Shown: positions 3,127-55,042 of the stretch, piece after piece | Layout of the letters: each line of letters starts with the position of its first letter | How positions within the stretch are numbered: the first letter of the stretch is position 1 | Assembly (NCBI GenBank): GCA_905178155.1 | Contig: CAJINV010000002.1 | Span: 11,534,591 to 11,598,590, forward strand | DNA: 64,000 bases | Direction: 5' to 3' | DNA from: Amoebophrya sp. A120 | Taxonomy: Eukaryota > Protista > Dinoflagellata | Notes under the pieces: model-generated | What the model was told of the DNA's origin: nothing | The model's database searches: none | Seen by the model: only the letters and a program-made list of their open reading frames with translations | Made by a program: the position numbers and the translations under genes

Positions 3127-5454
3127 TCAAACCGCGGTGAGTTCGTCTTCCAGTACCAGCGGGTGCTCGGGATGTAAATCCAGCGCTGACGCTTTCCAAT
3201 TTTTCGGCTCGCCACAAAATTTGACTAGATCTAACGACCGAGGACTGGTCGGCAAGCTTGTGTACACGAGGCAGTAGTTTGGAATTTTCAGTGCACTTTC
3301 CGTAAAGCCCTGGTTGAAAAGTGTCAGGTACTTGCAGCAGGTCGCTCGCAGGTGCACGTGGGAAAAAGAATTTCTTCCGTCGATCTTTCCCATCAGACTC
3401 GTGGCTTGGTCCATGCCGATGCAATACTGTTGGTTCATGCATCCGCCCTCCCGGCTCGCTAGATCCGTATTTTTGCCGACGCAGCGAGCCAATCCTTCGT
3501 CGATCAAGTCCTGCCACTTGGAGCAGCAATTGGTTCTGGCGTTCACCAGTCCCCCGCAGTTCGGACTGTAGGCCAACGTCGTTTGCGAGAGCCCCACCTC
3601 GTACTCGTCGGTCAGCCCAAACATAGCATGAGACAGTTCGTGCGCGAAGAGCGCACCCTGAAAGTCCCACGCGGCCTGGTAGGTGTGCATTTTCGCGGAC
3701 ATGACCAGCATGTTGCTACCCCACTCGCCCCATCCGTACTGCCGTACTGACGGGCTGCCGGGCGCCACCCGAAGCAGATCCATCGCTTCTTCGGTCATCC
3801 AGACGTGCACCGAGACCGTCATGTGTTGCATGCCTGCGAATGTGTCCTCGCAGTGATGCTGTGCGAACGTAGCCAGCGCCGGCCAGTCACGGCACTCCAC
3901 CCAAAAGTTGTCCACGCCTTGCTGCAGCTGGCTCCAGCCCGGCGCCTGGCGCGGGTCCACGGCCTGATGCGAGCAGTCCGCGCCCTTCACGAACTCCAGA
4001 TCGCTGAAGCGCGCAAATCGGTCCACGCGGAAGACGTTTAGGTGGGGATTGCTGCGCGTGCTGAAGGGCGCAAAGTTTTTGTCCAGTACGGCGACGGTCT
4101 CTTCGACATACTCCGTCCACTGTTCCGCGGATTCCCAACCGTAGGGTAGCAAGACCAGATTTATGGAGTTGTCCAGGTCTCTCCCCGTTTCATCCGTTGG
4201 CGACACTTGCACGCAGGAGCCCCCGCCGTCCACCCGCGATGAGCCGGTGGAGCTTTGCTGGATGCTGCTGCCGCCACCTCGAGGATTGCCTCCACCTCCA
4301 AGGAGGGGCGGGGCCTGGTAGGGTTGCCCGTTGACTACGACCGGGTAATATCAAATGTAAAAATGTCTGGGTCTGGAAGAGTGCAAGATTTGACATGCAT
4401 ATTTCTCATGACACAGACACATGATGCCTGTAATGCATGACCTAGCATCGCGTACTTTTAGAGGGCTTCCTGATGCACTTTCCGCATGAGAAATGCCCTG
4501 TCCGTGTAGCACCAATTGTGCCCCTCTCGCTGGTCATGCAATACAAATTTTTTTAGAGTCCAAAAACAGCATGACAAGTTGCAATCTTCCAGACCCAGAC
4601 ATTTTTACATTTGATAGGTAATTGTCCGCTGTCTCGTACTCGTCCGGATGCGGTGTTTTTTCCGCCTCCGACACCGGGTTCCGGGCCTCCGTTGCGCCGT
4701 CGCTGGCCGCGCCACCGCAACAGGAGTCCCCCGCCGAAGCCTCCGTCGTCGTGGTTGATCGGTTTTCTTGCTGAGAGAACTTCTTGTTTTCGAGTGCGGT
4801 GCCACTGCCACTTCTTTGCAGAACACTTCCCACATCCACCGCGGATGAAGAAGCCACCTCTAGTACAATCCCCGCCTCACTCTCGCCATTGGTTCTGCCC
4901 CTTGGTGAAACTGCATCAGCGTGCCGCGCATTCGCCGGCTTGCTCACCTTCACTATCTTGATGCGCTTCTCTCTACTTGGGGCATTCAAGACCACCTTGG
5001 GTGGAGATCGTGCTAGTGCTCCTACCGCGTCATCCTTTCCCAGTTCGTCCACGTCCTCCGCTCCGGCTCCTGCGCTAGCCAATTTAACATCTGCTTCGTG
5101 ATTCTGCGAAATACCGGTATTATCTTCTGAGAGAATCCCGGCAGACCCCGGCGCATGATTCTCTATGAATCCACTATTTTCGACTTCCTCATCCTCGCCA
5201 GTTCCAGTGTCAAGTGAAGCGGAGTTGACGTCACCACGATGGAGCCTATTTAAAAGTCGGCGATCCCCCGGATGTTGTGGTATCAGCTTATTTTTTTTCT
5301 CTGCTAAAAGCGATTTATTCGCTTTCAGTCTTTCTTCTTCCGGGGGCACAGCATTTTTCACTGCGTGACTTGTGTCTCTGTAAACGTAAGCATCGGTAAA
5401 TCGGTCGAGGAAAAACCACGACCAAGAGTTCGAAGCCAACAACAAGTTCCTCAT
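3127..5454 (-). CDS. Zinc metallopeptidase, M64 (IgA peptidase)-like. Two exons are split by a TIR intron. The start is uncertain.
   Basis: Motif FAHELSHAMFGLTDEY (HExxHxxxxLxDEY). ORFs 4534..5454 and 3127..4233 join in frame (...ETADNY-PVVVNGQPY...SRVDGGGSCVQV) after removing 4349-4616 plus one TSD. Confidence 0.75.
4349..4616. mobile_element. TIR element acting as a non-canonical intron, family A (268 bp)
   Basis: TIR TATCAAATGTAAAAATGTCTGGGTCTGGAAGA at both ends. TSD GGTAA at 4344-4348 and 4617-4621. Excision restores the frame. Confidence 0.93.
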
Positions 5455-6205
5455 GTTAGTGAAAAATCAAGGCAACAGGCGGATAAAGATAGAATTAGAA
5501 GAACCGCTAGCGTTTATGTGCAAGTGCAACGGTGTCGCCTTTTGGCATAAAAAAATTGCAGGTCGAGGTATATATTGGGTTGGCGACGTCAAGCTGAAGT
5601 CTTAACGAAATATGAATATCACCTAGAGCTGGGAAGGGAACTGAGACTGGTGTCACTTTAAAAACGGAGTATGTAACTTCTTGATTCTTGTAGAGACTGA
5701 CAAGCGCGATTGCTGGAAAGATGATACTCAATGAGCCGAGAGATGAAGGCGAAAGGAAAACAAGGCCATCGGAAATACATCAACCTACGGTGATGCTACA
5801 GCTGACGATACGAAGAAACGAAAGCGGCACGGTACGCAGACACGAAGGACGTGGACGACTTTACCATGTAGATGTTTCGTTACGAAAAATGTAGAAAAAA
5901 AGCATGAACGACAACAAGTTCCATGATGTGAATGTACGACATTTTTGGGCACTTCTACTTTTTTGTGTGCAGCTGCAGAACGTCGACATCAACAAAACAT
6001 GTTCAATCAGACAAGACAAGGCAAGACATACTGACGACGATGCACAAGACGACGATCACCTTTTACAGTGACCTGCAAGAACCCTCGCCAGCAGTAGCAG
6101 CACTTTTCTTGAAAAAAAAAATGAGCAATTCATTGTGCTGATAGCCGATGTCTTTCTGGATTCCGTGTCCATCTTCATTCCATCTATCATATCTACAGCA
6201 TCTGA

Positions 6206-9164: not shown

Positions 9165-12100
9165 TCAGTCGTTGGTGCTATTGGCACTCCCACCTGCAAC
9201 AACCTTCATGTTCGCAAGGCGTGGATTTTTCGCAACCACCACTTGCTGCCCGTTGCTCAGAGAGCGATTCTTCGTGGAGTCCCTTGGCTGACTTGGCGGC
9301 CGCGGAATCAGTCCGCGACTGTATCCAGGAAAAAAGCTGTGTAAGTGTAACTTTGTAGGAAGAGCAGCATCACAAATTCGCTTTGCATTACAGGGGAAAC
9401 CTGTCATGCGCAATTAGCATGCCAAAACACGTATGGAAGTAGCCTATGACGCACATCCAGCATCACAAGTGTGACAGTTTTGCATTTTTTGCATCACAGA
9501 CTTACACTCACATAGTTTTTTTCTTGCATAGACTGGGGTACAGTTTCATACTCCGCAGTTCCCCACCTCCGCTTCCGCCACTCGTGGCACCCGGGAACGA
9601 AGACGCCGCCACGGCAGAAGGTGGCGCGACAACTTTGGGATTGGGAGCTGCATTTTGAAGTAGACCATTACCCGCTAGATGGTGTGGTTGAAAGGTCCCT
9701 GGTGCGCCTCTACTCCCGAATAAGTCACTATAGCCCATTGATGTTCCATCGGGTGGTCCCCTTGCTGGTAGCGTGCTGGATTTCACCTGCTGCGAAATCC
9801 GAGGTAAAACGACGACTTCCCGGGAGCGACCGCGGGGTGGCGACGGCTGCTCTTCTTCGCGACCCATCCACAGACCGAAGCTGTTTCCCGCCGGGCGCAC
9901 AACCGGCTCCAGAGAACGCGGGAGATCACGCCGTAGCGGCAAAGGTGGAGGCATAGGTTCGACTACTCCAATGATGGCGGACGACTGGTCATCAGGATCC
10001 ACCGTGAAGATGGCTTGATCTCGATCATCCTTACGAGGACGCGGCTCATCTAGCTGCACCTGGCTCTCGCTACTAGGATCATGCGCAGCAACAAGTACCT
10101 GACCCTCAGCCTGCAGCTTCGACGCTGAGTTGGAATGTGAGTGCGCACTTCGTGTCAAAGTTCTCGGCGCGCTGAAAGACGAAACAACGAGCCCCGGCGG
10201 GGGAGCGTGTTGTCTTCTATCCTGTAGCGGTGCAGCTGCTCTCACTGTCGCGGTCGCTTCGTCGTTGGAAGACGAACTGCTCAAGCTAATGAGTTTGGAA
10301 GCCGGCTGCAGAATGTTCAAATGGCCGCGCTGCTTGTTCGCGATTGCATTCACTGTGGGGGAGGGCCGACCGGTAAAATTGATGCGCTGTTGCTGCTGCC
10401 GGTGACCCTCGGTGCGGTCGTGGTAATTGAGTTCCTTCTTCGCCGTGCGGTCCGGATGCACATTGTACTGGTCCCGGGAACTACTGGCAGAAGGAGCTGT
10501 GTTGGACACTAATGGAGCTTCCCTCGGAGGGGTCGTCGCTTCCGGTGGAGCAGCAGAAAATAAGACGTCCGGAGATGAGGGCGCTTCAGCGATGCTGCTC
10601 TCGGAAATGAAAGAAGATGCCACTGTAATTTGCTCGCGCTTCTCAATCTCTGGCTTCTTCACCTCCAAGTCTGCTTTTTTCATTGACGCCGCGAGTACTT
10701 CGTCGTCCCCTGCGACCACAGCTTGTCCCTTGAAGTCCTCATGTCCTTGTGTCGCCTCCTGTATTTCAGCACTGTTAATAGTTGGTGCGAGTTTTTTTTC
10801 TTGACGAGATCCGCCAGCGTCTGGTTGCACGTGGTCACGCTCGCGGTCATCTTCAGACGCCTTCTCTGTTACTCCTACTTCTTTAGTGACAGAACCCTCC
10901 GGATCTACATCTGCTGCTGGTCCTGATTCGTTTGAGTTCCTTACTTCCGTATCTGGAACGTGCTGCGTTGCGTCTACGTCCATCGGCGTCGGCTCGATAT
11001 TCATCGGCTGCGTCAGTTCGCTTAGTTTTTCCGGTTCTTCATCAGCAATGTTGCGCGGCAGCTTTCCATACTCATTTTCGGCAGCAGCCTGGGAAACAGC
11101 AGTACTATCTTGCGCCTTTGCGGGTTTCGCCTCTTCTGGCGCTGAAGCGTTGCTACCACCCGGGCGGTCCTGTTGCATTTCTCCCTTTTCATCTACGAGA
11201 GGTCCTAACGCTTTTTCCAACGTTACGGCTTCAGCTTGAAAGACATGTTCGTGTTCATCGTCTTTCTCTTCGTTAGCACCAAACTGACGTCTTGTCTTTT
11301 CACCGTCCGCTTTCGTATCCGCTGCATCTTCGACGACGTCACTGTCAGCCTTATTTGCCCTAAAATTTCTTCCCGTGACAAGAGTCTGGAAGGCAGACGT
11401 GACTTCTCTCAGAACCTCACTGGTCTCCGCACCCAGCAACTCGGTCCTCGAATTCTTGGGTCCGCCAGAATAAAGATCTTCCGCGTTTAGAAACGCACAG
11501 TATTCAATGTGCCCGACTTCTCCATTTTCTCCCGGAAGATTCAGAACCTGCGTCCAACAAGACCTTTTCTTCTCAGTGGAACCTAATTGTGCGCCAGCAG
11601 ACTCCTGCTCCGCAACCTTCATCACGGACGCCGTCACGGACTTGCAGGAAACATCTGCATGCAATGACCAGGCAGAAGTAGGCATCGTCGCGCGTGACAC
11701 CGGGTCACTCTCCCGCTTCCGGTTCCGACTTTCGCTTTCCGGGCTTGACATTTCCGGAGTATCAAAAGCTTGCCTGAAACCTGCAACCAATGATAGAGCG
11801 ATCGGCGGCGCTGTCTTCGGCGGAACAGGGGTGACGCGACGCCATACAAGCAGCTGGACATCCGGGCAGTCGTGCGTCTTCTTCAGCCCACCCTGGCATT
11901 TATCATCACAACTCGCAGGACTGCTTTTGTCCCTCTCCGCAGTAGCAACCGCCTTCTTTACGCCTTCACGGACGCTCTCGCGGTCCCGCATCGCAGTGAA
12001 TAAGAACTGCAACAGTTTCGACGGTCCGAGTACTTGCTTCCCCGTCTGGGCGTCCTTTACGCCCGTGTTGAGCACGACGAGGTGCTCGTAGAAATCGCTC

Positions 12101-16793: not shown

Positions 16794-18764
16794 TCAGTCC
16801 TGTTCATCATCGTCTTCCTCCTCTGTGATGATGTTTGACTGGGCATACCCAGACGATCGCTGTTTCGAAACCGGACTCATCGTTGCCTGGGCTTCGCCCG
16901 TTTCGCTGATGAAATCTTTTTTTGCCTTGCCGCCGCCCGGGTGCGCCGTGAGCAACGAAGACGATTCCTGCAGCTTTTCGCCGACGAATTTCGCAAACGT
17001 CTCCAGCACCTCCGCATCATCGTCGGTGAAAATGCCAATCTCTTGGTCAATTTCGATCTTGTTGATCATCTGGATCACGCCGACGACCTGTGGGACGACA
17101 AGCAGTTGACAATAAATCACGAACTTTCATAAGTATTCCCGCGGAAGCTAGCCAACTAGTGCCTGTAAGTCACTCTTTGCTCGCACAACCACGAACCGCA
17201 CTTCCTGTATTCAGAAGTACGTGTTTTTTCAAGAACGAGCTCCATCATAGTTCTGTCCACGACCAATTTATGAACCAAACAGACCTCTACCTTTGTCTCG
17301 GTGCTGTTTCGTATTGGCACACACAGCATGGATTGGGTGTGGTAACCGGACTTCTTGTCGAAGGCTTGGTTGAATCGCGAATCCTGGTACGCGTCGGGAA
17401 TGTTTATCATCACCTTGTCGGTTGCGCACTCCCCCGCAATCCCCGCAGTCCGCGGGATCCGGATCTCCTTTCCGCTGTCCGAACTCACGCTCCAGAGTTG
17501 GTCCTTGTTTTCGTCTATCCTGTGCAAAAGTATCGTACTCGTATTGCAAGTCTTGCATTACAAATCTTTTTCTTTTTGTTAACTCAAATCCGCATTACAA
17601 ATTTTTTTCTCATGCTAGGGAAATTTGTAATGCATTTATACGAGTACGATACTTTTGCACTGCATATCGTCTACCAAAAAGACCGTACACCGGTCCGCCT
17701 GAACCAACTCCGAAGCGTGCATGGTAACTGTAAATCAAAAGCATGATGGGGGGAAGCACGATGCAAAATTTCGCAACATGCGTGATACATAGTACTACAC
17801 ATCAAAAGTTCATCTCTCAGCGCTGGAAAGAGCTGAAACAATCAATCCACACAAAAGTAAAACTTGTCCATTTATACTTGTCAAAATCGTGCTCTGCGTC
17901 CCCAAGTCCTGCGACAACGCCTGAATCACATGGAGCAACCCGTTGGCCCGCTCCGACGCCACGATGGCGTCCCGGTACACCTCCGCGTTCCTTAACGCGA
18001 TCCCCGCATGCTGCGTTAAGTGTCCCAGGAGAAGTTCATCGATGGCGCTGAAAATCCCGCCGTCGGCCTTGTTGATGGCTTGCAAAACCCCAACGGTCTC
18101 ATTTTCGAAGTCCACAATGGGCATGACGAGCAGCGACTTTGTGTGGTAGCCGGTTAGCCGGTCAAACCCCGGGTCAAACCGGGGGTCCTTGTAGCAATCC
18201 GGAATGTTGACCGTCTCCTGCGTCTCAAACACGTGGCCCGCGATACCCTGCCCCGGTTGCACGCGGATGGGCTTCGCGAGGTTCGAAGCGGTGAGAATGA
18301 GCATCTCAATCTTCTTGTCCCACACAAACAGGCTCACGCGGTCGCAGTTCAGAAGCTTTGCCGTTTCAGCAATGATGATGTTAATCGTCTCTTTCGGAAC
18401 GATCTCGGCCGTTATGCTCCGCGTCGACTCGAAGAGTCTGTGAAGATGAGTTGGGATCGGTTTAGGAGATAGAAGTGTCAATGCAAGAAACTACGCACAA
18501 TCAACACGTCGCCTGTCCTTCTCTCATCTCCACTTACCTTTTCAGATACTGACTCGGAACGTCCATGATGTTGTTGCTTCCGGGCAAAGATAAAGAAGGT
18601 AATTCTCGCCGAGAATGCCCATCTCCGATTTCCTCCTCGAGCTTGCCCAGCAGAAATTTCTTCGGCTGCAGGGGTTTTTCCTTTAGGAGGGATTCCGTTA
18701 ACTCGAGCACCAGGTCCTCGACGTGGTGCTCCGCGAGGTACGTCTGCAGCGCTTCTGCCTCCAT
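16794..18764 (-). CDS. RIIa/Dpy-30-like docking domain plus two tandem GAF domains of the PDE regulatory type, multi-exon
   Basis: N-terminus LQTYLAEHHVEDLVLELTESLLKEKPLQPKKFL. GAF-A is LNCDRVSLFVWD...GIAGHV...NIPDCYKDPRFDPGFDRLTGYHTKSLLVMPI...GVLQAINK. GAF-B is VQADRCTVFLVD...GIAG...NIPDAYQDSRFNQAFDKKSGYHTQSMLCVPI...GVIQMINK. There are three GT-AG introns plus one TIR intron. Confidence 0.85.
17516..17666. mobile_element. TIR element acting as a non-canonical intron (151 bp)
   Basis: TIR TAT(C/G)C(T/A)GTGCAAAAGTATCGTACTCGTAT. TSD TCGTC at 17511-17515 and 17667-17671. Excision rebuilds the GAF motif RCTVFLVD-ENKDQLW. Confidence 0.94.
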
Positions 18765-24911: not shown

Positions 24912-27900
24912 CTACGAAATCTCGGCCTGTTCCTCTTCTTCCTCCTCCTCCTCGTTCAGCAGTGCTACCTCTAAATCATCATCGGCCTTGGCCCCGCCTG
25001 TACTTCCAAGCTCGACCTGCGTGCTACCCTCGGGACGTGTGAGCACGAACATGAGCATTGCGACTTGAACGCCGACAACGATGAGCAGAGAGAAGATGAC
25101 GCCGAACCAACCGCCGCGGCGTGCCTCGAACGTGTCGTCCTCCTCCTCCACCTCATCCATTTGTCGTGGCTCCCGCCAGCCGTACGGAAGACCCGTAGCG
25201 AAATCCACTTCGTAAACCTGATTTTCAAAGATCAAAAGATTGTTTTGCATAACCAACGAAGATGAGCAAATTGCTTCAGGCAAATATCTCTTGCACTTGT
25301 CCCTTACTGAGGCGCGAGAAGACAACAAGTCAGTAAGCAAAATTCAGGGCCGGTTATGTATAAAAGCTGCACAGACCATGACAACTGTGTGCACTCAAGC
25401 CAATACCTCGTTTGTATCGTGCATGACCCAGGCATCTCCGGTGGGTGTTTTGGCGTAGAATCGCGCTCCGACGACGAGATTTTCGTTGTAGTGCGTTTTC
25501 GCGGCCTCCAGGTACTGGTAAACCCGGTCGTCTTTTTGGCTCTTGTACTCTGCGCTGTTCATCATCTTGGTCAATTGTTTGATCTTTTTTTGCAAGAAAC
25601 TCCGGCGCGCCTTGACGTACTTCTTTTGCATGAACGAAGCCGCGTCCTCCTCATCGTGTTCCTCTCCGTCCGCGCCCTTTTGAGGTTGCGCCGCTCTCTC
25701 TTGCTCCTTCAAAGCTGCCTCCTCTGCGAGGGCCTTCTGCTGCTTCGCTTCCTCCTCCAGCAGCTGTGCTTGCTCCTCGGGGCTGCCGTGGGTGGTAAGG
25801 TCCTCGGAGGGCAAGACTAGCGACGCCATGACCATTGTCAGCATGGAGGCGACGGCCTGCAGGGCCGGCGCGAACTGGTCAAGCACCGACTCCACCGAGC
25901 CGTGAAATAAATCGGCCAGGTGCTCCATGTCGTGGCGAAGCCGGTCGTGCGACTTCACATCGTCAGCCAGCCCCGTCACGTCGAAGGTGGCAAAGAGGTC
26001 TTCCTGTTCGTGCAGGTCGAAGCTCTGCTCCATCATCACGCATTCCTCGACGGAGTACTTGCTCTGGGGGCACTCCGCCTCCAGCGCGTAGTGCAGGTGA
26101 GGTTGCAAGCCCATCTTGGAAGCCAGGTGAAAGTAGAACTGCTCCTTCCGCACGGCACCAACAAGCCCGTGCCCCTGCAGTTCTTGGTCCTGGAAATTAT
26201 CCTGTTTCAAAAGTACTAGAACTCCCCGTCGGCTCGCTGCACGGTTTTCTTAACTTGCGTGCTTTCATGCCGAAAATCTGCGTGCAAGAGATTGATGATG
26301 GACTTCGTTCATTATGCCGCAGCACTGCAGATCAATTATGACATACATCCCTGCTAACTCAGGGGGCAGAGGTCCAGGTCCTGTGGGCAGAACAAGAACC
26401 CCAGTACATTTATTCTACTTACTCATCAAATTAAAGTTAAAAGAGAACTGATGAAAGCCTAATAATTTCCGACACGACATGTGTGTTTTCTTCACTTTTC
26501 TTTCCGACAATGCGCCTGCAGCAAGATACGCGGGAGTTCTCGTAACGCTTCATAGAAATCCGCCATCGACGCAAATTTTTCCACCTGCACCGCCTGCTCG
26601 CATTCCAGCGTGGTCTCAAACCCGTTCTGTTCGGGACTCTGACATTCTTCCAAATACAGCGCCCGCACCATCATGGAGCCGAGGTGAGCTCCGGGCAGAG
26701 ACCAATCCCGGATGTCCCCTGACCTGGACGACGCGGTCTCGTTCCAATCTTCCACGGGAACCTGCTCGTCCATGCGGCCGCGCGCCCCATCCGTGCGCTC
26801 AACGTCGTCCTCGTGGGTGTACAGCACGCGCAAGGCCTCGATCTCGTTGTCGATCTGGCGCTGCGCGATCCAGTCCTTCAGCAGGCCGTGCTGCACCGGT
26901 TCCGAGCGGTAGAACTCCTCCCACTCGATGGTGGCGTATCTTGTCTGGAATTCGTTACGGGAGACGATGTCAAACTTCGTGTGCTCTACAACCGTCCACT
27001 GAAACAAGATCGCGCCGCCTATCTCCAGAAACTGCGAAACCTCCTGCATCAATTTCAGGACGGCTTCCTGCTCTTGCGGGTCCGGATTCGAGGGGAACAC
27101 GTTGATGTGTTGCAGTGGCAGCCGCCGCGTCACCGCGACGGACTGGAAGGTCGCCAGCACCAGCTCGAAGAAGCGCTGCTCCATCGACCCCGGGTTCAGG
27201 TTGGCGTATCCCTTCTTCAGGACTCGGTCGACACTTCGCACAAAATCTTCGGTGATCGGTAGCGCGGCCACAGGCGGTCGCTGGAACGGAACCGCTGGAG
27301 CGCCGGATTCGCACTGTGTTGCGTTTTTTGGAAAAAATGATATAGGTGAATCATAACGATTAGGACAAGGGACGAGGACGACGACGACAATGACAAAATC
27401 ATAAGCCAGCGTTGCGGATAGCTTCGGGAGCAAGTCGCTGCTTTTCTTTGACGAATGAATCAATCATGTTCACTCTACCGTACGTCTTGGCATTGAAAGA
27501 AATTGCAAATAAGAATAACTGCAAACTGTATTCATTCTACTTCATAGTCCTATTACAGCACTTCTTCCACCACGTACCTTTTCCTCCCCCGGTTCGCACT
27601 TCATTTGCTTGAGCTCCCCCCGGAACACCTCCGCGGTCTGCATGTTGAGGTAGCATTCCTCGATTTTGGCGATGACCTGGCGGTTGCGCTTCAGGCTGCG
27701 CTCCACCTTCCACCACTTGTTGCCGGTGACGTCTTGGAACCACGTGAACACGCCCGTCTTGCCCACGATCAGCTCCGTCAACCCCGCGCACTCGCGGAAG
27801 GTGAACCCGTTCTTCTCCATCCACTCCCCCTCGCGCGGGAAGTACTCCACGATGTTCTGCTCGGCGTCGTTGTAGATCCCGTTGGGGTACTCCTTGGCAA

Positions 27901-30900
27901 AGTAGCCCGTCGCGTCCACGTCGTCGTCGGGGATCATGTGCGCCGTCGTGGGCATCCCGTACTCGATCATCACGAAGAACTCGTCCTTGTCGTCGATCCG
28001 CTTGTGCAGCACCGGGGCGCCGTTCACGAACGTGCGCCCGAACAGAGGGAGCCGCGCGCGGTCCAGCCGGCTCCAGTTGGGGTTGCGCTCGAACATCTGG
28101 TAGGGCATGATGCGCATCGTGCTCCAGTCCTGCGGCTTCAGGTCGATCGGGCCCCAGAACCGCACCTTTTCCGCGCGACGGCGGACGAAGGGAATCCCGT
28201 TCACCAGGAGCTCCATGTCACTGGTCTCGCGGTACACCCGGTCCAAATCGTTGTCGTTCTTCACACAGTACGTACGCGCCATGCGGAACCCAGACAAGGT
28301 GTGGCTGCTCATCAAGCGGTAGATCGAATCCTTCATGAAGAACTCGGGGTGCGTGCCCGGACGGACGCCGCTGTTCCGGGGAAACGCGTCCGCTGCCGAA
28401 ACACGCTTCAGCTGCTCCATCATTCCGACGTTGATCCGCCGCCACAAAGTGCTGTTACACCGGTCGAACAGCTCGTCCTCGTGTCGCTCCATGTTCCGCG
28501 TCTCGTTGATATTCAACAGCGTCTTTTTTTGTATTTTTAGATGGAATTGTCGGAGATGACAAAGTTCCAATTTTCGACCGGATTGGTACATGCTGTACTT
28601 CGTGCGTGGGAAAAACTACGTTGGCGCGATTGACTCGATTACTTGGATAGAGTTGCTACTACTGCTAGCTACGCGGCGCATTGCAAAACTAAGTTGCCTG
28701 CAACAGGATGCATGTGGATGTCGAAAAAACCAGCAAAGATAAGACGTAGTAAAAAAAAGGTAAAGACACGGGTAGTTGATAACGTCTTCAAACACGTTTC
28801 ACAAAGACGTACCACGTCCTGCTCGCCGAGCGGCGTGCCGAAGGGGTGTCCCACGGAATGGTACTCGGAGACCCAGCCCTCGAGGCACTGCGTCCCGTCC
28901 TCGCTGAGCTCGGTGCAGTAGCCCCAGACCAGTGCACACTGACGCGCGTAGAAATGGGTACTGTCCTCCGGATTGGTCAGCGCGGCCTCGTGCGGCATGC
29001 ACTCCTCCGTGACCTCGGGTCGGTGGTGGTGCAGCTCCATCTGGACCATGCGGAACTGGTCCACCATGACCGGCTCCCCCAGCCGGTAGTCCAAACTGGA
29101 GAACGGCTCGGTGGGCAAAATGAGGGAATTCGGCAACTCGGCGTGACCCATGGTGAACCGGCCCTTCTGCCCCGCCAAGGACTTCTCAACAACGGTTTCG
29201 TTCACCTCCTTACCCTCGCAGCACGAGTTGCCGTCCTGCTTCTTCGCCACGACGCGGGTCACGTCCATCGCCGGGAACGTGCAAGTCTTCAGCATCTCCT
29301 CCGGAAAGCGCTGGGCCTCCACCCAGGAGTTCCCGAGCTCGTCCTCGAAACCCCGCAGCGGGTAAATCGTTCGCTTCTGTCAGGTATGCATTGCGAAAAT
29401 GTCGGAAATAAGAAGCATGAAAGTACAGAATGCAAACACCACAGACACTCGCCGGGTTTTGTTCCTCCTTGCGAGGAAGCCGAAAATGCACCGAACTCGT
29501 TGAACAAATAGTGAAAAATCTATGTAGAGTGCGGAGCTGTTTTGTGGCGCGGATCTGCGGTCTCTTTGTTGCAGGTTGTATTATCTACGTAATATCACGA
29601 CACTTTCGCACCGAGGATACTTGGCGCTCTGGACCGGGGTCGGGACCACCGCAAACGTGCCTCCCTCGCCGCCGTACGCCACGGCGCGGCACTGCAAGAG
29701 CCGCCAGTTTGTGGGCAGCTCCGGAAAGTCCTCGAGCACATACTGCTTGTGCGTGGCACCTGCGTTCAGGTGCATGACGAACATGCCCGCACCAACGGCT
29801 TCGATGACCCACACGTGGCGTCCGGTTTTCCAGATCCACCGGATCTCGTCCACCAAATCTCGCTCGTAGACGACGTAAGGCTTGCGGTCATAGAAGCCCA
29901 GTGCATCCTTCGGGGTCATTGTGGCCGCGTTGGATTTTTTGTTGTCTTCGAAAATGGTGTAGAAGTCGTGGCGCACCGGCACAAAGATGAGCGGGTCCAA
30001 CTTTCCCTTCTGCTCGTTGAAGTGGTAGGCTTCGTGGCTGGGCGAGTAGCGGGAAGCGCCCTGGTTCAGACACTTGCCATCCACCTCGATGAAGTCCACC
30101 TCGAGCGAGTGGCGCTTCTTGATCACGATGGTGTGGTCGCCCGAACAGGTGTGCGTGTGCGTTCGCGCGCACTGGTCGTCCAGGTCCGCGGAGATGGTTT
30201 CCTTCTGCAGCACCTCGAAGCCCTCCTGCCCGCAGTTCCCCGCGTCCGTAGCCAGCAGGACGGACCGCGTCTTGAAGCAGAACTCTCCCGCGTCGTGCGG
30301 GTCCGCGCACTTGCCCAGCTCCAGTGTGCAGTACGACTCCCCAAGTAAAGTCGGTTCGTCCGGGCCGTAGAACGCGCCGCAACGCTCCCACGACGCCTCG
30401 TCGCGCTCCACCACTTCTCCGGTCGAAACAGGCAGCGCCTCGACCACGTTGCCCTGCTCGTCCACGTGTTGCGGCTCCTCTCCACAGGTCTTCAGCATCT
30501 GTTGAAGTGAGACTTTCATTATTTTCCCAGGAGATCATTTCATTGTTTATACTTCACAATCCGCAGCGATAAAAATATTGTTCGCGGAAGGGGAAGGCAA
30601 AAAAACCAGCGACGCTGCATAAAAAAGCGCATCATGGGAGGAATTAGTAAACACTATCATTTCAAAAATGTTGTATCATTTATATCGAGTGATATCAAAA
30701 ATGAAAACCTCAGGCGGCATGCGTCCGGTGGCTTCGATCCACGTGTTTTTCATGTGATCTACGAACGCTCTGATCGTAAACTGGGACTTTGTGGCATTCG
30801 CGGGAGGAGGCTGGACCGGCACGGTTCCCAGCTGGAAGACGCCATGCCCGCTCTCCTGAGGATAGCTCGCACGGGTCGTGCACCGCAAAAACTGCATGCC

Positions 30901-33900
30901 ACTCGGCACCACCTTGGGATCACGGTAGTTCGAGGCGGTAAAGGCGCGTCGGTCCACCCCGCTTGTGTACAGCATGACGTAATACTCGTTGTGCTCGGTG
31001 TCGTGCAAAACGTAGACCTCCCGGTTAGCCTTCCAATTGTAGGACACCGGAGAGTACAGAGAGCGGGTGTACTTCACGTAGGGGAGCATTTCTGAACAAT
31101 CGTAGTAGTGTCAACATTCTGAATCAATTGAAAGTAAGAAAGTCAATTCGGTAGCGGGCAACACGCGGTCATCAAAATGAACTACTTATTTATACTCTCG
31201 AATCCCTTGTCTTCGATCACATGGCCGGCGGTTATGCCTGTGGTGTTCGCAAATGTCGTCTGAAGAGTGACACCGGCGGTGTCGTACATGAGGATGTGCT
31301 CGCCGAACTGAACCGTGTCCTGGAATCCGGCCGGCGCTTCGCCCGGACTTTTGAAGCACTCCCCACCGTGGTACAGATAGTCGAACTGAAAACGCGCTAC
31401 CGTTTTCAACACGATTTGAATCTGCGTCGTGGCGCAATCCACTGTATTCATTTTTCGATAAGTACTTTTTTAAATTCTTTACGCAGGATCTGCTCGGTGG
31501 TAGAACATGATTGGGACCACGACCCTGACCCGTCGTGAAGCAAGATGCTCCTTCGAAGATGCCAATCGCGCAGCCGGGTGCGAACCAACATTGGAATTTT
31601 TCGAACCACAATCAAAAAGATCCATAAAACGACCACGTGCAGTAGTAGATCCAAAGAAGCAAAAATTTCTATACGCTCCCGGGCCTTGCACTGGTCGCGG
31701 TACAAAGTGCGCACTTGGCTCTTGCTGAGTTCGTCGAAATGGCCGTAATCACAGGGAAGCTCGTTGGTTTTGAACCAGTGCGTGCGCGTGGTGTCGCACT
31801 CGTCCAAGTTCTCGGAATCGCAGGCGCCCACCTCGAGTTCGCACTGCAGCCAGTCCGCGAGCGAGAGCAGCGGGTCGGTATCAAAAGGAAAAACCCCCCC
31901 TCCCCATATCAAAACGGAAATCTGTGATGCAGATTTGGGGTCACAAATCAGCTCTGTATTGCAGTAGAGGACTGCAGGCCCACATCAAGCCTGAGTGGGA
32001 GAGGTTTTGGCCTAGGAGCTCAGCACGACAAAAGTCGATGCTGTAGGTCCAACAGCATCACAAACCGCCGGTATAATGCGGGGGGCCTTCTGGGTTTGCC
32101 TTCTTGCAAGACAGACGGGATTTGTGGCCACAAATCAGCATCACAAATTTCCGAAAATATACCTTTTCGGTATGGGGAAGGGGGATTTTTCCTTTTGATA
32201 GTCGGCGGCCATCCCGCACTTCCAGCCCGCTATGGAAGCGTCAGGTATAAAATCGTCAAAGTTGAAATAATTTGTAATGCAGAAAATGCGACACAAAAAG
32301 TGACTCTATTGCAGAGGACCCACGGGAGGCAGATTATAGTCCTGGTAAGGGTCAACAGTTGGACTGCTAACTAGCATGACAGAAGGCAGCTCCTTTGCCC
32401 TAAACCGCATGACAGACTCGCTTCCAGGACCGGGGAGATTTGTCATGCACCGACTACAAACTGTAGGTCTAACTGGTATCCGTTTTGTGCATGACAAACT
32501 ATTTCAACTTTGACGATTTCAAACCTGACACATCCATACCCGCGGGCCGGGGCGTGTTGGGGTCTTCGAGCTCCATCTCCCTTTCTTTGTCCTGGTACGC
32601 CTTCAGCTCCGTCTCGGTGATGAACTCCTTGGGCGCGAAGTGGTGCGTGTGAACCTTTGGGTGCAGCTCCGACGCGATCAGCGCCTCCTCCACCACGTTC
32701 TGCCCGTCCTCGCCAAACTGGTTGGGGTCGTGCTCCGCCGCCTCCGTGTAGAGCTCCGGAAAACACTCGCGCTTCATGTTTTCGGTCATGGTCCGGTAAT
32801 CGAGCTCCCAGAAAATGTTGTGCTTCTGGAAGACCCGATTCGTGTTCACCAGAGCCACGTTCTTGTTGGACGCGTCCACGCCGGCGACTTCGCAAGTCCG
32901 CGCTACCGTGCCGTCGGCTTCTGATTCAGAAGAAAGGATGGTGTCGGGATGACCAGCGTACATGCCCAAAAGGTACACCTTCTTCCCGCCACGGGCAACC
33001 GCGCTCTGCTCGTCCGACTTGTAGGTACGGACGTGGATGGAGCTCCCCTCGCGCAGCGTCGCCACGACCAAATCGTCACGCAAAGTTTCGTCGTCGGGCG
33101 CCAAAAAGGCCGTCTCGCCCTCGTCTTGCACGGCGCGCGCCGAAAACGTCACATCCGGTTCCGTGAACCCGTTGGGATCGAACCGCAGAGGCTTGTTCCC
33201 CGAAATCTGAAACTTCCGCTCGTGAATCTTCTGTGGCTTGTACAGAAAGGTGATGCCGCCAATGTTCACCATGCTCAGCGCCGCGAGCTGGGCCGACTGG
33301 AGTGGAAAAAAAAAGTGTACAAGTTCTTTTTACTTTAATGTAACAACAACTACGCAGTACGCTAGTACACCGAGTATGCTATTAACATTCAGTACTGCAA
33401 TTACTAGAAGCCTAGTAGTAGTAGTAGTAGTTAGCGTTCCACAGCGCTCATAACAGAAACAGCATGATATGATCGTTTTGGCATTTGCAACGCAGAAAGA
33501 GAAGCATGAACAAACCGTCATCTCCGTGTCGCCCGTTGGCGAAATCGCAGAGGCAGCGCCAGAGTTGCCACGGGCCGCCATTGACGCTTTCGCGGCGGCA
33601 AAGTACTGGTCCGCGCGCGAGGAGCACTGATAGGATCCAAATTCATTGTAGACAGCATCGACCGTGAGTGGAACGGGCGGCATCTTGACGATGATGGGCC
33701 AGGTGTGGTGTGCCGCAATCGTTTTGTCCACGTTCCGTGTGGTCACGAAGTTGCGTAGAGCCACCTCAACCTGCAGGCGCGTGATGGCATCAAACTTCTC
33801 GGTCGGACACTCCTCGACGGCCAGGAACCTGGTCACGATCCCCTCATAGCACAAGTCATCGGCTCCTTCCACCTTGTTGCTGCAGTGCCCCACAATCAGC

Positions 33901-35359: not shown

Positions 35360-38300
35360 TCATGATTTTGACGCTTCCTTAGAGGCCGGCTTGGGCTTCT
35401 TCCACCGCACGACCGCTTTCCGCCAGGAAACCAGGCACTGAGGCCCAAACAGCCGGAAAACACACTTGTCCAACACGAACGAGAGAAACGCCCCGAATCG
35501 CTGGGCGGTTCTCGTCGAGGAAGTGGGCCAGATTCCGATGATGTCCGGAAACCGACGGGTGTCTTGATCGCAACGACTGACTCGCTCCAGTTGGGCTGAA
35601 GACAAACCAGCGAATCTTCTCGGGTCGCCAACATCTTTGCCTTCTTCGCCGCATTTCAGATTTTCCCGCACATGCGTTGGATTCGTCGAACTCGGGATGA
35701 CCACCACCCCCCGTTGTAGGTTCCACCGCAGTGCTACTTGCTGGACTGTGCTGTCCAGCTGCTATCAAATGTAAAAATGTCTGGGTCTGGAAACTTGTGA
35801 TGCTGTGTGGCGTATCATGAGGAGGCCACAATTGCTGGCTCAGCATGACAAGTTTCTGAGCTTCTAGGTGTTGCCAATTCTGCATCACAAACTACGTTGC
35901 TGCATGACACAAAAGTGGGGCTCTTTGGTAATGTTCGTTCGTTCGTGTGGATCGGCTCTGCCGACCGGGTAACCCATCGCCTCGCATACAAATGACCGAC
36001 ATAGGCGAACCCCGTTGCGGGACATACATACGGCCGTACGGAAGGGCCCTAGGCGCTACATACATAGTTCACCCTAGCGCCTACCACTTCGGTCGGGACT
36101 GAGTCAGCCTGGTCCTGGGGGTTCACAGCGCACTAGCCCTCTGCTAGCATAAACAGATTGGGTTCTAAAAACTGATCTAACTTCTTATAACAGTGAGGCC
36201 ATCATACTGGTGCGCTAAAAAGGGTTCGGGGCGCTCCGTACGGAAGGGCGCCTTTCGACGCGGCGCACACTCTCCTGTAGAGGTTTACGCGGAACACGGA
36301 TGGGCCGCGCACGCAACTCAGTCGAGGAGGACACGCGCTCCCTCAATGACAGAGGTGGCAGTCACTCCCGGCGGCTGGCCTGTCTGGAGACGGCAAACCC
36401 CGCCTCCCATCTTCCCGGTTCGTCAATGACTCGGGCAAGCCATGTTGCTTAGACTCCCCGCACATGCAAATATGGGACGGCTGGGGGGGTTCAAAAAGAG
36501 CACCAGCTGCGGATGATCTAAGTGTAAAACAAAAAGCCATATTCTTCAGCTGTGCTGTTTATTTATCACTAGGCTGATGGCCTCCTGTTCTTTGTCTGCC
36601 TGCCGCGCCCCTAAGGCTAAGACCTTGCTCAGAAACAAGTCCGCCGACCAGAAATAAGTCCTCCCTGCAGAAACAAGTCCAGCACCAAAAGTCCAACCAA
36701 AAACGAGTCCGCCCTGCAGAAACAAGTCTACCGACCAAGAAAAAGGTGCCCAACCAGCAAGAAGCCCAGCTCGTCCAGCAAGTCGGCCCAGAAACAAGTC
36801 CGCCGACAAGTCCACCCACCGACCAGGAAAAAGGTGTCCAACCAGCAAGAAGCCCAGCTCGTCCACCAAGTCGGCCCAGAAACAAGTCCACCGACAAGTC
36901 CACCGACCAGGAAAAAGGTCTCCAACCAGCAAGAAGCCCAGCTCGTCCAGCAAGTCGGCCCAGAAACAAGTCCACCGACAACACACCATCAACTCCGAGG
37001 CCGAAGCGCAACTCCGAGACCTCCACGCGTCTGTTAACTCCGAGCCCGACCCGAAAGCGCAGCGCCGCCACTCGTCCGCCCGGAACTGCGAACAAAGAAA
37101 CCCGACCAGAAAGCCCAGCACCGCGGCCGGAAAGTCCGCGCGGTTTGTGTGTGTGTGTGTGTGTTTTTCTTTCTAGCTTAGAAGGAATCTCCCGCACTTT
37201 AGGCGGCTGCCAACAGAGGCCTAGGGAAAACGACGAAAACTAACAACAAGATTCGAGACGAAACAAGACGATTATAATGACGACGAAACATAAGTGAATA
37301 GCTAAAAGCACCTCATCTACACATCCAGACCAACCTATACAACTACAAATCCACCTCATCTACACACCCAAACGCAAGCAAAAATATTTTTTTTTTTTAT
37401 TTCCCCACTGCACACAGTTGGTAATGTGCATGGCAGATTTAAGAGTCATGCCAGACAAGCATGACAAACTTGCATTCTTCCAGACCCAGACATTTTTACA
37501 TTTGATAGCTGCTTTGCTAGGTCCATGAGAATCTCGTCTTTGGCGAGCGATTTCCGCCCGAAGTTCAGCGGGCCCCAGGCGACCGGGCGGATTTCTCTCT
37601 CCTGCAGGTAGTTTACCAACTCTTGTTGCTGAAAATGGGGATGGAGCTCAATCTGGTTCGCGTATGGCCAAATGGTAATTGCCTTTCTGTGTCCTCTCGG
37701 GGGGGCTGCGATGGTGTCGGAAGAAGAGCAGAGGAGCTCCGGGCGACTACTCTCAGAAACCTTGCTCGAAGATGTTGCACTGGTGGACGCAACAGAATCG
37801 GTGTCATCTTCTGCGGAGCCGGAGCTCTTCTTTGGTGCTTTGCTCGATCCTGCTGGTGCTGCATCTGCATGCGTTGCCACCCCAGCCACGCCGGCGTTCT
37901 GGTCAGCAGTTGTACCAGTGTACCACTGCAGCAGTTCTGTTGCCAATTGCGCCCTGTCAAAATTTGACACGCCCAAGTTCCGGACCAGGCCTTCTTGCAC
38001 CAGCGTTTCCATGGCATTCCAGGTATCCAAAATAGACACCGTCTGGTCCACCACCAGCGGTTTGCCCTTAACAAACACTCGCGGCCAGTGAATCAGCAGC
38101 AGGTCAAGATACGAGCTTTGCAGGTCGTTTAAGCTGTCCAAAACCGCACTCCTCACGTCGCTCGGGTGCAACTCCTCGCACCAGAGCTTGGAGGTTATCC
38201 ACAGGTCGCTGCGTGTGACACCGCCGGTGTTGCCTTCCAAAAACCTTGTCACCGCCCGCCCGACTTCGTCCTCGTTTGCGTACAAGCGCGCGCAATCCAG

Positions 38301-45800: not shown

Positions 45801-45922
45801 ATCATCTTGAATTAATCTCTTCATCAAGCAAAAAAAGAAACTGAAGAGTAAGAAGCAAGAATTGGAATTTCAAAAGCAGCAGCACAATTATAATACGTTA
45901 ATAAGGTAGCGTTTCCAACACT

Positions 45923-49008: not shown

Positions 49009-52000
49009 TCAGCTTCGCAGCAAGGCTTGCGCTTTCTTCCCCTCCTCTGTTGCTTCCGCACTTCGGTTTAGCTGATGGAGTGCCCACCCGCGCCTGGTCC
49101 GACACGCCGCCTCGAGTCGCGGATGCGAACTCTGCGGCTTTCGGGACTCGATTGCCCGCAGGGTCTCGTCGCACATTTTCAACAAGTCTTGAACCCGCTT
49201 CAATTTTTGCAAACAGAGACAACAGTTCAGCCGGACGCGGAGCTCTTCCTCGAAAAGATCCTCACCACTTGAAGATGCGGCTCCAGAAGCAGAAGCTTGG
49301 TGTGGTCCTGCAGCCAACTGAAAATTGCCCTTGGTACGTGCGTAGTTGAAAATCTGCAGCGCGGACTCGAACTCTCCCTTTTCGAGGTACTTCGTGGCCG
49401 TGCCGACCAACTTTGCGACTTCCGCCTGCTGCAGGGACCCGTCCTCCGGGTCATCTTCGTCCTCGGAATCGGAGTCTTCTACCACTGCGGCAGATTTTGC
49501 CCCTCCTGCAGTTGCACGCGATCTCGATTTCGCCTCAACATCCTCAGCGGAACTCGAGTTCTGACCACCACCGCCTAAAATCTTCTTTTGGATGATCCTT
49601 TCCACGTTCTTTGCCTCAGTTGCACTGAGCTGCCCGGACGCGGAAGTACTAGTACCGGCTGCTGTGGTGCCTTCGTCTTCCTGTTCCCCCTTGCCACCCA
49701 ACTTTTTCAGATTTCCCGCAATTTTCGCTCGAAGCTGCAGCGCATCCGGATTTTTCGGTTCCGCCGAGAGTACCATCTCCAGAGCCTTCGACGCATCTTC
49801 GAACTGCTCCTGCAGTTCGTACGCGCGAGCCTGGCGGAGACGGGTCTTCACAAAAAGCCTGCGCCGAGTCTTCTCGCACGGGTGGTCGCGGCGAAAACAG
49901 CCAGGCTGCGTGGCAATCAGACTGCGCTCGAAAAACTCGGTGCTCTGAAGATAGATTTTCATGGAAAAATGCTTTCTTGTTTTTGTCACAGAGTTCTCTT
50001 TGCGCAGTCGCTCCTATCCATCTGGATCGCATTTCAATTTTTCCCTCTCGGCGACTGCATGTCACTCTGAGGAAAAGTAGAAGTCATTGACTTTGACGGT
50101 GCAGTGAAGACGAAAAACTATGACTTGACCCATAGCCCAGCACATAAGTACCGTTCTGTCTTCCTCTTTCATTTTCTCCTGGTCGAGTTCCGCCCTTTTT
50201 TTTTGCTCGTCCAGATACTCCGACAGTTTCATCCGGTACTCGCCCGCCTGATGCAAGGCTTCGCTGCACGGCCCCTCCTTCGCCAGGTTCTCCTGCCGCG
50301 CCGTCTCGATGGCCGCGTCGATTACGTCAATGTTCCGCGTGTAGAGCGCCTCCTGAAACTTCGTGATCTTCGCCCGGATCGCCGTAATCTGGTCCCGCGT
50401 CAATTTTTTGCGCACCGCAATCCAGGCCTCGTCTTTCTTCTCGGACGCGTCCCGCACCCACTCAAACTCCTCGGGGATATCGGGCAACTTCCCGTCATTC
50501 GGCGACCCGTGGTGCTTCATCAGCCAGTCTTTCTCGTCCGTTTTGCTGGCGTTCGGGTTGCGAAAGGTGTGGTCCTCCAGCGTCGGCGGATCCAGTCGCT
50601 GCGGCTTTTCGGGAAGCTTCGGTGCATTCCGCGCCACCGGCCACCTGGCGAGTAAATCGCAGGTCGTGTCGGCGTCTTGTAAACAACCTTCAATGTCCAT
50701 CGCTTGCAGCTTCACAAAACTCCGGTTCGCGCAAACGACGGCGTTCTCCTCCTTTTCCAGCAAGAACGCATCGTCATACTCTTTCAGAATCACCGCCTGG
50801 GTCTCCTTGTCGAGCACGTTGTTCGTCGTTCGAAGCTTCTTGTCAATCTCCCGCTTCTTCTCGCACGCTTTGGCAGCCAGTCGGACGCGTTGCAGATCTT
50901 CCTGCAAAATGCCTCGTTCCTCTTTCGTCAGTGCGCACTCCTCACACTCGTTCCGGTCCAGTGCAGTGAGGAACGAATCCTCGCACCGGGCGTACTCTCC
51001 CAGCCAGAGAAAGGCGACGCCGCGCCTTACGAGAACACGTGCGCGCAACTTCTCGTCTTCCGGGTCCTTCGGCGGGGCGCAGTGGCCGTCGGGCACTTTG
51101 GTCTTCATGTTCAGGATCTTTATCGCGTGATTGCAATCCTCGATGCAGTTCGACAGCTTCCCGAGGTACAGGGCGCACACTGCCCGATTTGCGAAGGCGC
51201 GCGCGTTGGAGTACTCGGTAAGTGCGGTCGTGTATGCTTGCATATCGTACGAAAAAACTGTTTCACTGTGAACTTGTGATGCATAGAATGGAGCACACAA
51301 CTAGTTGTCTTGCTACACATGCAAGACACTGGGTTTTTCAACGTGTTTTCCCTTAGGAAGCACGCATGGCAAGTTTTCTTGGTCATGTGTAACGAACTTG
51401 TAATGCAAAACTTGCAAAATCCTTACAGTGAAACACTTTTTTCGTACGATACTGCATAGCGCTCGGGTAATCCCCCGCGGCCATGCATTTGTCCGCCTTG
51501 TCCTTCAGCCACACGGGGTCGGACTCGTCGTAGTCCGTTTCGCCAGCTAGTTTGTGCTGCTTGGCTGTGGGATGTTTGTATGTTTTCCTTTTGATTGTCC
51601 AAGGTGAAGTTGAACTTCAACTCATACTTGCATTCATTTCATCAGATGTTTTCGTGACTGATACTGATTTTTCGTTGCACCCAGAAAAATATGTCGCAAA
51701 ATCTATCACTTTCATACGCGCGGCCACGCCAGTCAGATCCCTCGGGTGTGGTGGGGCGCGGCCGGGCCTATCACGCGCCGGAACGCCGGGCTTTGCGTGT
51801 CGGGTCATCGGCAGGATCATCTTGTGCGTACCGGCTTGGCGAACCTCTGGCAGGTGCGGTTTTGGCGGCAAGATCTCCATCTGATACTCCTCCTCGCTGT
51901 CGGGGTCTTTTTCATCACGGGCCCCTGCAGCTTCTATCTTCTGATTGTCCTCCGGGTCGGTGTTTTTATCCGTGATGTTCTCCGCCTTTTTCGCCTTGAC

Positions 52001-53024: not shown

Positions 53025-53630
53025 CTTGGCGAACGGAAGCGTTTAAGAGATTCAAATACTTACTTCTTTTCTTAGCGATCAGTCGTGCATTATAAACAGA
53101 AGAACTAAGAAAAAACGCAGACCGTAAGCAGCACGCACGGCGAATGGGATCCGTGCTTTGGTCGACCTTCACTCAGCTGAGGAAAGATTTTTTGTTGGAC
53201 TTGCGCTGCTTCTTCGTCCTGTCTCACTCTCAGACTCAACGCACAGCGCTCTGTCCTCCCACAGCTGAGAACATAATTAAAGCGCAAGGAAATAGGTAAG
53301 ATTTTGCACCATCGTATCTAGTTCTACTTTATTGTCGACCGCGCAACAATAAACAGGTCTTGTTTGCCCTTTGTACAGGCATTCGCTCAGACTCAACAAT
53401 GTACAAATCCGTTCCTGAAATTGCAAGGGCCACCAACACCACGACAAAAATCGCCGGTGTCTTTTGCTTGCTGTTTCGTGACTTAACAGCAACGGGTACC
53501 CGTATACGAACGTTGTGGCGCAACGTTACTGACACTAAGTTCATTTTTGGAGGTCGAAGTCCATGAATCACCTTCGAGGACTCATAATTTTTTGAGTGGT
53601 TCAGAGCACTTGACGACTCTGAGAACTACC

Positions 53631-55042
53631 TCACGCGGCCTTTTTCCGCGTCATGTGATCAAAAATCACCACCTGCACGTACTCCGCGGTTTTGATTTCG
53701 TGCCGCTTCGAATTGTCTCCGGGGTCTTTCACGCGCGGGTCGACGCAGATTACCTCAAATGCCATTGAAAGCTACGTCCCAAAGATAGAAATAAGAAAGT
53801 CAAAAGGAAGCATGATTATCAAGCTCAGATCCGAGTAGTTTTCATCTCCTTGAATGATGAAAAAGACGAACGATTTACTACCTTTCTATCCCTTTTGTTC
53901 TTAAACAGCAGCCCTTGCTCGTAGTCTGGTATGATGTGATATCCACAGTAAATTTCCCGTACACGTACAAATGCAGTCTCTGCATGACAAAACTTGCCTT
54001 CAGTCCTAGTCTAGCATGACAAGTTGGACACTGCAAGTTAGCGAAATTTGTCATGCATTTTGTACATGTACGGGAAATTTACAGTGCATATGTGAAAGTT
54101 CGCGGACTCGTTTGACGCAGTGTGCTGTGTGTCCCAGTTGTAGAAACTCAAGTCCGTTTGTCGGGGTAGCAGCCTCTTTTTTCCTGTAGTGCGTTGTTTT
54201 AGATCCAGTTCCATCTATTTCTTTTCTACAACGACCAAATTAACCGCTACCAGCACGAATACGCCTACAACCAAACCATGATAACCAACATCAGTTTGCT
54301 AAACAATGAACTAACTTGTCGCACAGAAAGAACCAAAACCACCATTGAATACTTTCAAAGTAAGGCTCGAAATTCTCGCTCTTCAGTCGCTGCCCGTAAT
54401 CTATGTACCCTGACACCTCCTGCCCCTTCGTGTTTTTATCTCTTATGAAGATAATCACGCTGAGTTTGCCTTGTCGTACCAACTCTTCCCGGGCGGCCTA
54501 TTGGGATCAGATTTTGAAACGTCCCATTCAAAGTAGTCGATGGATCTGTGCAGCAGCGACGTGGGTACAACCAGTCATTCATCTTTTATTTTTTCTCGAA
54601 TGGAGCAACAATCAAAAAATATACCAGATGCCTCAGAAATGGGTAATCCGTGAGGTCTTTGTTCGCTGAGGCCAACACTTTCGGTGCATTCTGTAACTTG
54701 CTTTTTCTTGCCTCCTCCGCAGCCTCCTTGCGTGCTGCAAACTCTTCCCGCGACAAAACCTCGCCTTTGCGACACCCTATTTCCACCTGTTGGTAGATAA
54801 TCCATTGCACTTCAAAAACTGTCTGGCGCCCCCGCTTTAAGCATTGTTCACATCATGAAAAACAAAAATGCAAACATATGCACAAGCAAGCGTTCAACGA
54901 GATGAAAGCTCAAGTCAGTCAGCTGTACCAGCTGCCTTGCTAGCTCGTCATCCTCAAGGTATTTCCTGTCGTGGGCAGTGATTTGGGCGTCCAAGTAGTC
55001 TTCGTACGTAATGTACTGCTCGACACTGGCGTCGTCGTCCAT
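53631..55042 (-). CDS. CFAP299: Cilia- and flagella-associated protein 299 (C4orf22), six exons
   Basis: Joined exons read [13 protein letters not shown]...[15 protein letters not shown]...[35 protein letters not shown]...[15 protein letters not shown]...[17 protein letters not shown]...PGDNSKR...[14 protein letters not shown]. Confidence 0.92.
53940..54090. mobile_element. TIR element acting as a non-canonical intron (151 bp)
   Basis: TIR TAT(C/G)CAC(A/T)GTAAATTTCCCGTACA(C/T)GTACAAA. TSD TGTGA at 53935-53939 and 54091-54095. Excision gives conserved [17 protein letters not shown]. Confidence 0.95.

Follow-up and report, generated by a model that had tools for sequence, protein, structure and literature searches.

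Introners of the dinoflagellate Amoebophrya sp. A120 are described as starting with TAT, seven variable bases and at least three A, with short direct repeats at their boundaries (Farhat et al. 2021, PMC7789003). According to the same text, they are mostly 150-320 bp long, use non-canonical NT…NN splice sites (Table S4), are associated with co-oriented genes and are sorted into 1,954 families, and U1 small nuclear RNA (snRNA) went undetected in Amoebophrya. We analysed a 64,000-nucleotide stretch of the A120 genome (contig CAJINV010000002.1, positions 11,534,591 to 11,598,590 of the forward strand; hereafter the window), which holds ten TAT…ATA elements with terminal inverted repeats (TIRs), named E1 to E10. 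They have the same TAT start, variable stretch, A run, repeats and splice-site type, and with their TAT termini and 5-bp duplication they fit the published introners of this strain. The text of PMC7789003 sets out no internal motif, spacing rule or fixed cut offset; here, several families appear as diverged relatives with one internal code, an array of a short motif that is likely bound by a shared mobilising protein.

Transposons with comparable ends have been reported. Introner family 38 of A120 is about 810 bp long, contains integrase-related open reading frames (ORFs) and is tabulated as 'Ginger, 5-bp TSD, TA/TA Termini' (TSD, target-site duplication), with Ginger termini reported as lacking (Gozashti et al. 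2025, PMC12130899); it shares the 5-bp duplication, the TA/TA termini and the TIRs with the window elements and differs by its ORFs, the window elements being non-coding. IS3EU/GingerRoot elements have TA..TA termini and usually 6-bp duplications, IS481EU elements have TNT..AYA termini and duplications of about 4, 15 or 25 bp, and Ginger2 elements have 4-5-bp duplications (PMC10045372). The window elements have the TA..TA termini of IS3EU/GingerRoot, but a 5-bp instead of a 6-bp duplication, a length within the Ginger2 range; we assign them to neither IS3EU/GingerRoot nor Ginger2. As to internal sites, specificity in Tn7, with its TnsB arrays, depends on a short terminal sequence followed by multiple weak sites that are correctly spaced (PMC9308760). 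Both the elements, as introners, and subterminal binding arrays as a kind are already known. The text and supplements of the introner literature that we consulted gave no earlier description of the motif itself, with the proviso that one might appear in figures of PMC7789003, such as the logos and examples of S19-S25.

In the window, the core GCATNACA occurs 28 times within the 2.1 kb of the TAT…ATA elements and not once in the remaining 61.9 kb (Table 1). The original prediction, made from the letters of the window alone, had described the pattern GCAT(G/C/T)ACA(A/G), in both orientations, in eight of nine elements, and this was borne out by 27 matches, all in eight of those nine (2,105 bp), with none in the other 61,895 bp. 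The density was far above background, as pattern matches in dinucleotide-shuffled elements averaged 0.24 and never exceeded 3 in 2,000 shuffles. Twenty of the 21 listed positions were exact, the copy placed at 51284 being at 51274, and six copies (4428, 9385, 9401, 31922, 32374 and 32407) were not on the list; a tenth, motif-free element at 26198-26554 had been missed. The impression that canonical introns and the insert nested in E7 are free of the motif also held: no copy was found in the eight RNA-verified GT-AG introns or in the insert (1,493 bp counted with one copy of its 8-bp duplication), short stretches in which a zero shows only a lack of element-level density. Neither E4 nor E10 has a match, even with a lenient matrix. 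The element at 29385 (E4) was thought to have lost its motif through decay; the absence is confirmed, but the element may never have had one.

The same association was found in other loci. Metagenome contigs scanned for a two-motif pattern yielded at least 139 loci (L001-L139), merged into 126 stretches of 348,845 bp; 79 of the 80 listed loci lie on contigs of one assembly, and the remaining one, L049, comes from another record and holds no element. Viral contigs, scanned for matches, gave none. The 25 longest matches between the loci and the window are element copies throughout, at 74-94% identity. A caller blind to the motif, which required TAT…ATA, paired ends and a 5-bp duplication (one mismatch tolerated), detected 335 distinct elements in the loci and none in 126,732 shuffled bases. 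Setting aside 107 elements that match the query left 228 bystanders, not selected by it. The core is present in 219 of these 228, with 636 copies in 53,663 bp, and in all 10 multi-member TIR clusters; the loci were picked around one element class, and densities there are not genome averages. Outside the elements, the window holds 0 copies against 4.4-6.8 expected (rank 14 of 16,384 words), which suggested a genome-wide avoidance of the motif. This idea was rejected, as it did not replicate in the other loci, where 79 copies remained after element masking against about 19 expected, and predicted coding DNA held 19 against 6-8.

An unconstrained fit converged on a lopsided near-palindrome, TGC-AWB-ACA, with the core GCATBACA and the wider form TGC-AWB-ACARR. 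The pattern TGC-NNN-ACA occurs at 11.5 per kb in the interiors and 0.84 outside (about 14-fold), and TGC-NNN-GCA at 3.4 per kb inside and 0.83 outside, whereas TGT-NNN-ACA is not enriched. The most frequent middle triplets are ATG, ATC and ATT, followed by AAT, AAG and AAC. In the 636 bystander copies, the variable position is G in 330, C in 164, T in 138 and A in only 4.

The cores are conserved beyond their surroundings. Core columns scored 0.86-0.98 and other interior columns 0.63-0.83, and the core was the more conserved in each of the eight families, of which six had not been selected by the query; the core columns were taken from the consensus, a choice that favours conserved columns. 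Overall, the motif is about as conserved as the TIR. On trees of the six unselected families, the changes per column on tips and internal branches were 1.48 and 0.53 for the cores, 1.80 and 0.56 for the TIRs, and 2.61 and 1.51 for the rest, and the ratio of core to other changes was 0.35 on internal branches and 0.57 on tips (Fisher p 4e-5). The constraint on cores and TIRs alike is thus strongest in the lineages that left descendants, as would be expected if the constraint acts in lineages still transposing. Among other copies of E5 and E6, none of 28 variant positions falls within a core (p 0.035).

The sites are also regularly placed. The outermost sites have their centres 37-38 or 46-51 nt inside the element ends, and the gaps between sites are mostly 13-20, 31-36 or 43-51 nt (near 14, 18, 32 and 46-50), roughly a grid of 14 + 18 nt, 32 nt being three helical turns. 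The best spacing period was 16.5 (p 0.005 in 3,000 permutations; 0.009 without family 5). Families are inserted in both orientations relative to transcription, and in seven Pfam-anchored loci with 33 elements the copies divide 55 to 51 by RNA strand; the motif shows no clear strand preference relative to transcription.

At the ends, TAT starts both inverted repeats in all ten window elements, AAA occupies positions 11-13 at both ends in seven of the nine elements checked (exceptions E6 and E10), and the 5-bp duplication is exact in eight of ten. In the loci, A stands at positions 11-13 in 213-235 of 260 elements (TAT itself being required by the search), and 266 of 336 called elements have an exact duplication and 70 one mismatch, the caller's upper limit. 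With TIRs, a target duplication of fixed length, no coding capacity and little target preference, the window elements fit the description of miniature inverted-repeat transposable elements. Duplications of a constant 5 bp, at targets that show little preference, are indicative of a DDE enzyme. The depth of a DNA run over E3, E5 and E6 was about 700-1,900 times that of the flanks, which is not a copy number; over E4 and E10 it was that of a single copy.

Taken together, these features lead us to read the motif array as the likely DNA binding site of one protein; this protein, probably a transposase of the integrase type, would mobilise all the families. The original prediction of a common code for a shared double-stranded DNA binder is supported to this extent, by the conservation, the pseudo-palindrome, the spacing and the lack of clear strand preference; its further proposal, a flag for splicing, is treated below. 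The mobilising protein would load on several spaced internal sites and, like Tn7-type transposases, make cuts staggered by 5 bp at the TAT/ATA ends, and recognition through the internal array would leave the body of the TIR free to diverge between families. Once inserted, the element would no longer need the motif. Subterminal repeats or multi-site ends are also found in Mu, IS21, hAT and CACTA. Tn7-type ends combine a short terminal sequence with an internal array in which spacing matters, and repeated conserved sites at constrained spacing are also seen here. Unlike Tn7-, Mu- or IS21-type ends, the core here is 8-9 bp, pseudo-palindromic and of mixed orientation, and the putative binding sites fill the whole short element; moreover, the motif is common to several TIR families, and the element doubles as an intron.

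The families themselves are less separate than had been supposed. The claim that neither their TIRs nor their interiors are related was overstated: E1 and E7 share a 30-bp TIR, E2 aligns without gaps to the reverse complement of E8 (125 of 219 columns match), and E3 aligns end to end with E9 (98 of 166). Both pairs exceed motif-preserving shuffles (E2/E8 z 9.6, E3/E9 z 5.1). By the same kind of shuffles, 7 of the 28 pairs among eight family consensuses reach z >=3.0 and connect all but one of the eight families; many pairs give no signal, and E4 and E10 match none of the families. Judged from these alignments, common ancestry with turnover of the TIR would be the simplest origin of the shared motif. 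Mosaic elements, a possibility prompted by chimeric joints in DNA run X1, were not supported by comparing elements half by half: both halves were closest to their own family in 283 of 316 elements, and one half was clearly nearer another family in only 3. Two further candidates were rejected, namely copying between the TIR arms, significant in only two of eight families, and the TIR end as a degenerate motif, with a resemblance in only four of nine. Within TIR positions 4-10, in the window and in the loci, the two arms of an element are often unlike at positions 4-7, and a few identical variants recur across families; many TIRs contain small local duplications.

RNA assemblies for E4, E5, E6 and E10 came from four runs of two samples in one study, recorded as probable RNA, and contain ordinary GT-AG joints. 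All four assemblies skip 240 nt at E4 (unambiguously), 327 nt at E5, 313 nt at E6 and 362 nt at E10, and an RNA contig of run X4 skips 156 nt at E3; each of these five RNA-covered elements is removed as the element plus 5 nt, at non-canonical sites. Removing the same unit restores a long minus-strand frame at E1 and long frames at E2 and E7, with no clear outcome at E9. In loci L001-L139, element length plus 5 is spread evenly over the three frames (118, 116 and 101), as expected if splicing is efficient. Excision at the DNA level was rejected, the E3 joint not being among the 15 joints listed for DNA run X1, although contigs drop rare forms and stage-specific excision would escape such a search. 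The cut register could be resolved in E4, the only such intron whose duplication is mismatched enough: the intron is GT…TG on the minus strand, with cuts that lie 1 nt ahead of TAT and 4 nt beyond ATA and ignore an AG 3 nt further on. For this one intron, the register fits the NT…NN splice-site list (Table S4, PMC7789003).

Since the motif-free E4 and E10 are cut out exactly in all four RNA assemblies, the motif is not required for splicing; the contigs show presence, not efficiency. The proposal that it flags elements for special splicing was therefore not supported, as both motif-free elements are spliced precisely and copies inserted in exons keep the motif no better (core mismatch 0.115 in 135 exonic and 0.078 in 16 non-exonic copies). 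The ends of the RNA pair strongly in E4 (z -4.3) and E10 (z -4.2) compared with three canonical introns (-1.6 to +1.2). Splicing may thus rely on the TAT…ATA ends, held by an RNA stem, with the cuts at the E4 offsets. A mini-hairpin formed by the motif was considered and rejected, with no consistent covariation and excess complementarity in only one of four flanking pairs.

Besides the choice of core columns noted above, several points weigh against a shared transposase. None was found among the 150 longest of the 502 ORFs of the loci and 43 of the 95 window ORFs that were scanned, and the text of PMC7789003 reports no transposase in A120 and argues against general mobilisation by transposases. 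The spacing may be partly inherited through common family ancestry. With codon-based strand calls, which agree with Pfam in four of four confident cases and with splice words in just 35 of 57, TGTNATGC is mildly more frequent on the RNA strand in the bystanders (304 versus 245). Motif density is unrelated to TIR quality (Spearman 0.04), and all 16 further end-paired candidates overlooked by the caller hold a motif copy (one stretch counted twice), so that the loci show no sign of simple decay after insertion. As E4 and E10 fit none of the families, they may be old or may have lacked the motif from the start. Conservation of the core above that of the interior persists on tip branches, so that a function in the host is conceivable. 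A host DNA-binding or chromatin protein could mark the elements for silencing, nucleosome exclusion, or replication or transcription through them, copies that keep the motif spreading or persisting better. Such a protein would account for the same conservation, spacing and strand balance, and the persisting constraint on tips, the density that ignores TIR quality, the roughly fourfold excess of isolated copies outside called elements in the loci and the lack of a transposase in the scanned ORFs all agree with it. We nevertheless consider it unlikely, given that the constraint is stronger on internal branches, that fixed distances from the termini suit an enzyme acting on the ends, and that E4 and E10 work as introns without the motif.

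An RNA-level or co-transcriptional mark that routes the introns to non-canonical splicing, kept in both orientations because elements insert either way, would explain why the motif is present in nearly all bystanders and absent from every verified GT-AG intron, and an unnamed recognition step is to be expected where U1 snRNA went undetected (PMC7789003). The strand excess of TGTNATGC in the bystanders, with 18 versus 10 copies in the window, points the same way. Against this stand the exact removal of E4 and E10, an exonic core mismatch that deviates in the wrong direction, and the inconsistent mini-hairpin, which together make the mark improbable; a quantitative role as a splicing enhancer is possible and compatible with the contig data. 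That the motif is instead a functionless relic, its families descending from one ancestor with internal duplications and its copies merely still recognisable, draws on the partly connected homology network and on the over-represented TG and CA and under-represented CG of the interiors, by which mutation could favour such words. Cores that equal the TIRs in conservation and surpass their neighbours about twofold, a free position that excludes A, and the enrichment of TGC…ACA where TGT…ACA has none make it very improbable, and the core conservation and branch constraint largely refute it.

Table 1. Elements and nested insert in the window (positions of the window; r, reverse orientation of the motif)
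Feature	Coordinates	Length	Duplication	Motif positions	Remarks
E1	4349..4616	268 bp	GGTAA	4428 r, 4569	TAT…ATA TIR element
E2	9322..9530	209 bp	GACTG	9367, 9385, 9401 r, 9460, 9491	E8 homologue, opposite orientation
E3	17516..17666	151 bp	TCGTC	17555, 17592, 17625 r	Highly repeated family
E10	26198..26554	357 bp	GAAAT	none	Worn TIR; spliced
E4	29385..29619	235 bp		none	Worn; spliced, intron 29381-29620
E5	31879..32200	322 bp	GTCGG	31922 r, 32055, 32138	
E6	32231..32538	308 bp	CCCGC	32272 r, 32374, 32407, 32440 r, 32489	
E7	35763..37507	252-bp core + nested insert	GCTGC	35795 r, 35843, 35882, 35902, 37459	E1-type TIR; within aldo/keto reductase gene
Nested insert in E7	35934..37426		8 bp, TGGTAATG, at 35926 and 37419	none	No Pfam hit
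E8	51243..51451	209 bp	TTGCA/CTGCA	51274 r, 51398 r	Within TPR-protein gene
E9	53940..54090	151 bp	TGTGA	53982, 54014, 54048 r	E3 homologue

In the insert nested in E7, (TTCG)n marks one end and a T run lies close to the opposite end; the insert also contains (GT)n and a tandem array of 84-88 nt, has no relative in the loci, and is possibly a derivative of a non-LTR (long terminal repeat) retroelement. A candidate element at 13958-14289 was not counted, as its 5-bp duplication is exact but its ends are unpaired; this TATC…CATA stretch lies beside several direct repeats of 25-80 nt (14372-15458) in a region without an assigned gene. Among the loci, two long TAT…ATA elements with exact 5-bp duplications were seen, one of 753 bp without an ORF above 105 codons (L043:444-1196) and one of 2,459 bp with a 415-codon ORF lacking a Pfam hit (L040:165-2623); either may carry a nested insertion or be what is left of a longer element. 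L050 and L051 are the same stretch in opposite orientation at two places on one contig, perhaps an artefact of assembly or amplification. At 1113-2018 on the minus strand of the window, a long lysine/aspartate-rich 18-nt tandem repeat is followed by a core histone domain.

The spread and the splicing of Amoebophrya introners are both stated as open in the text of PMC7789003. Tentatively, the tens of thousands of introns in about 2,000 nominal families might belong to a single transposon superfamily in which two separate codes coexist: a phased array inside the element, which one mobilising protein would read, and an RNA hairpin at its ends, which the splicing machinery would read, with cuts at fixed offsets; the TIRs, freed from sequence-specific recognition, would diverge into ever new families. 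The precise splicing of introns without the motif sets mobility apart from splicing and suggests that the splicing signal is the end hairpin, and E4 fixes a cut register that fits the published spectrum of NT…NN splice sites. The conserved internal site offers a bait for the mobilising protein, a route to the autonomous element and a shared marker for many families.

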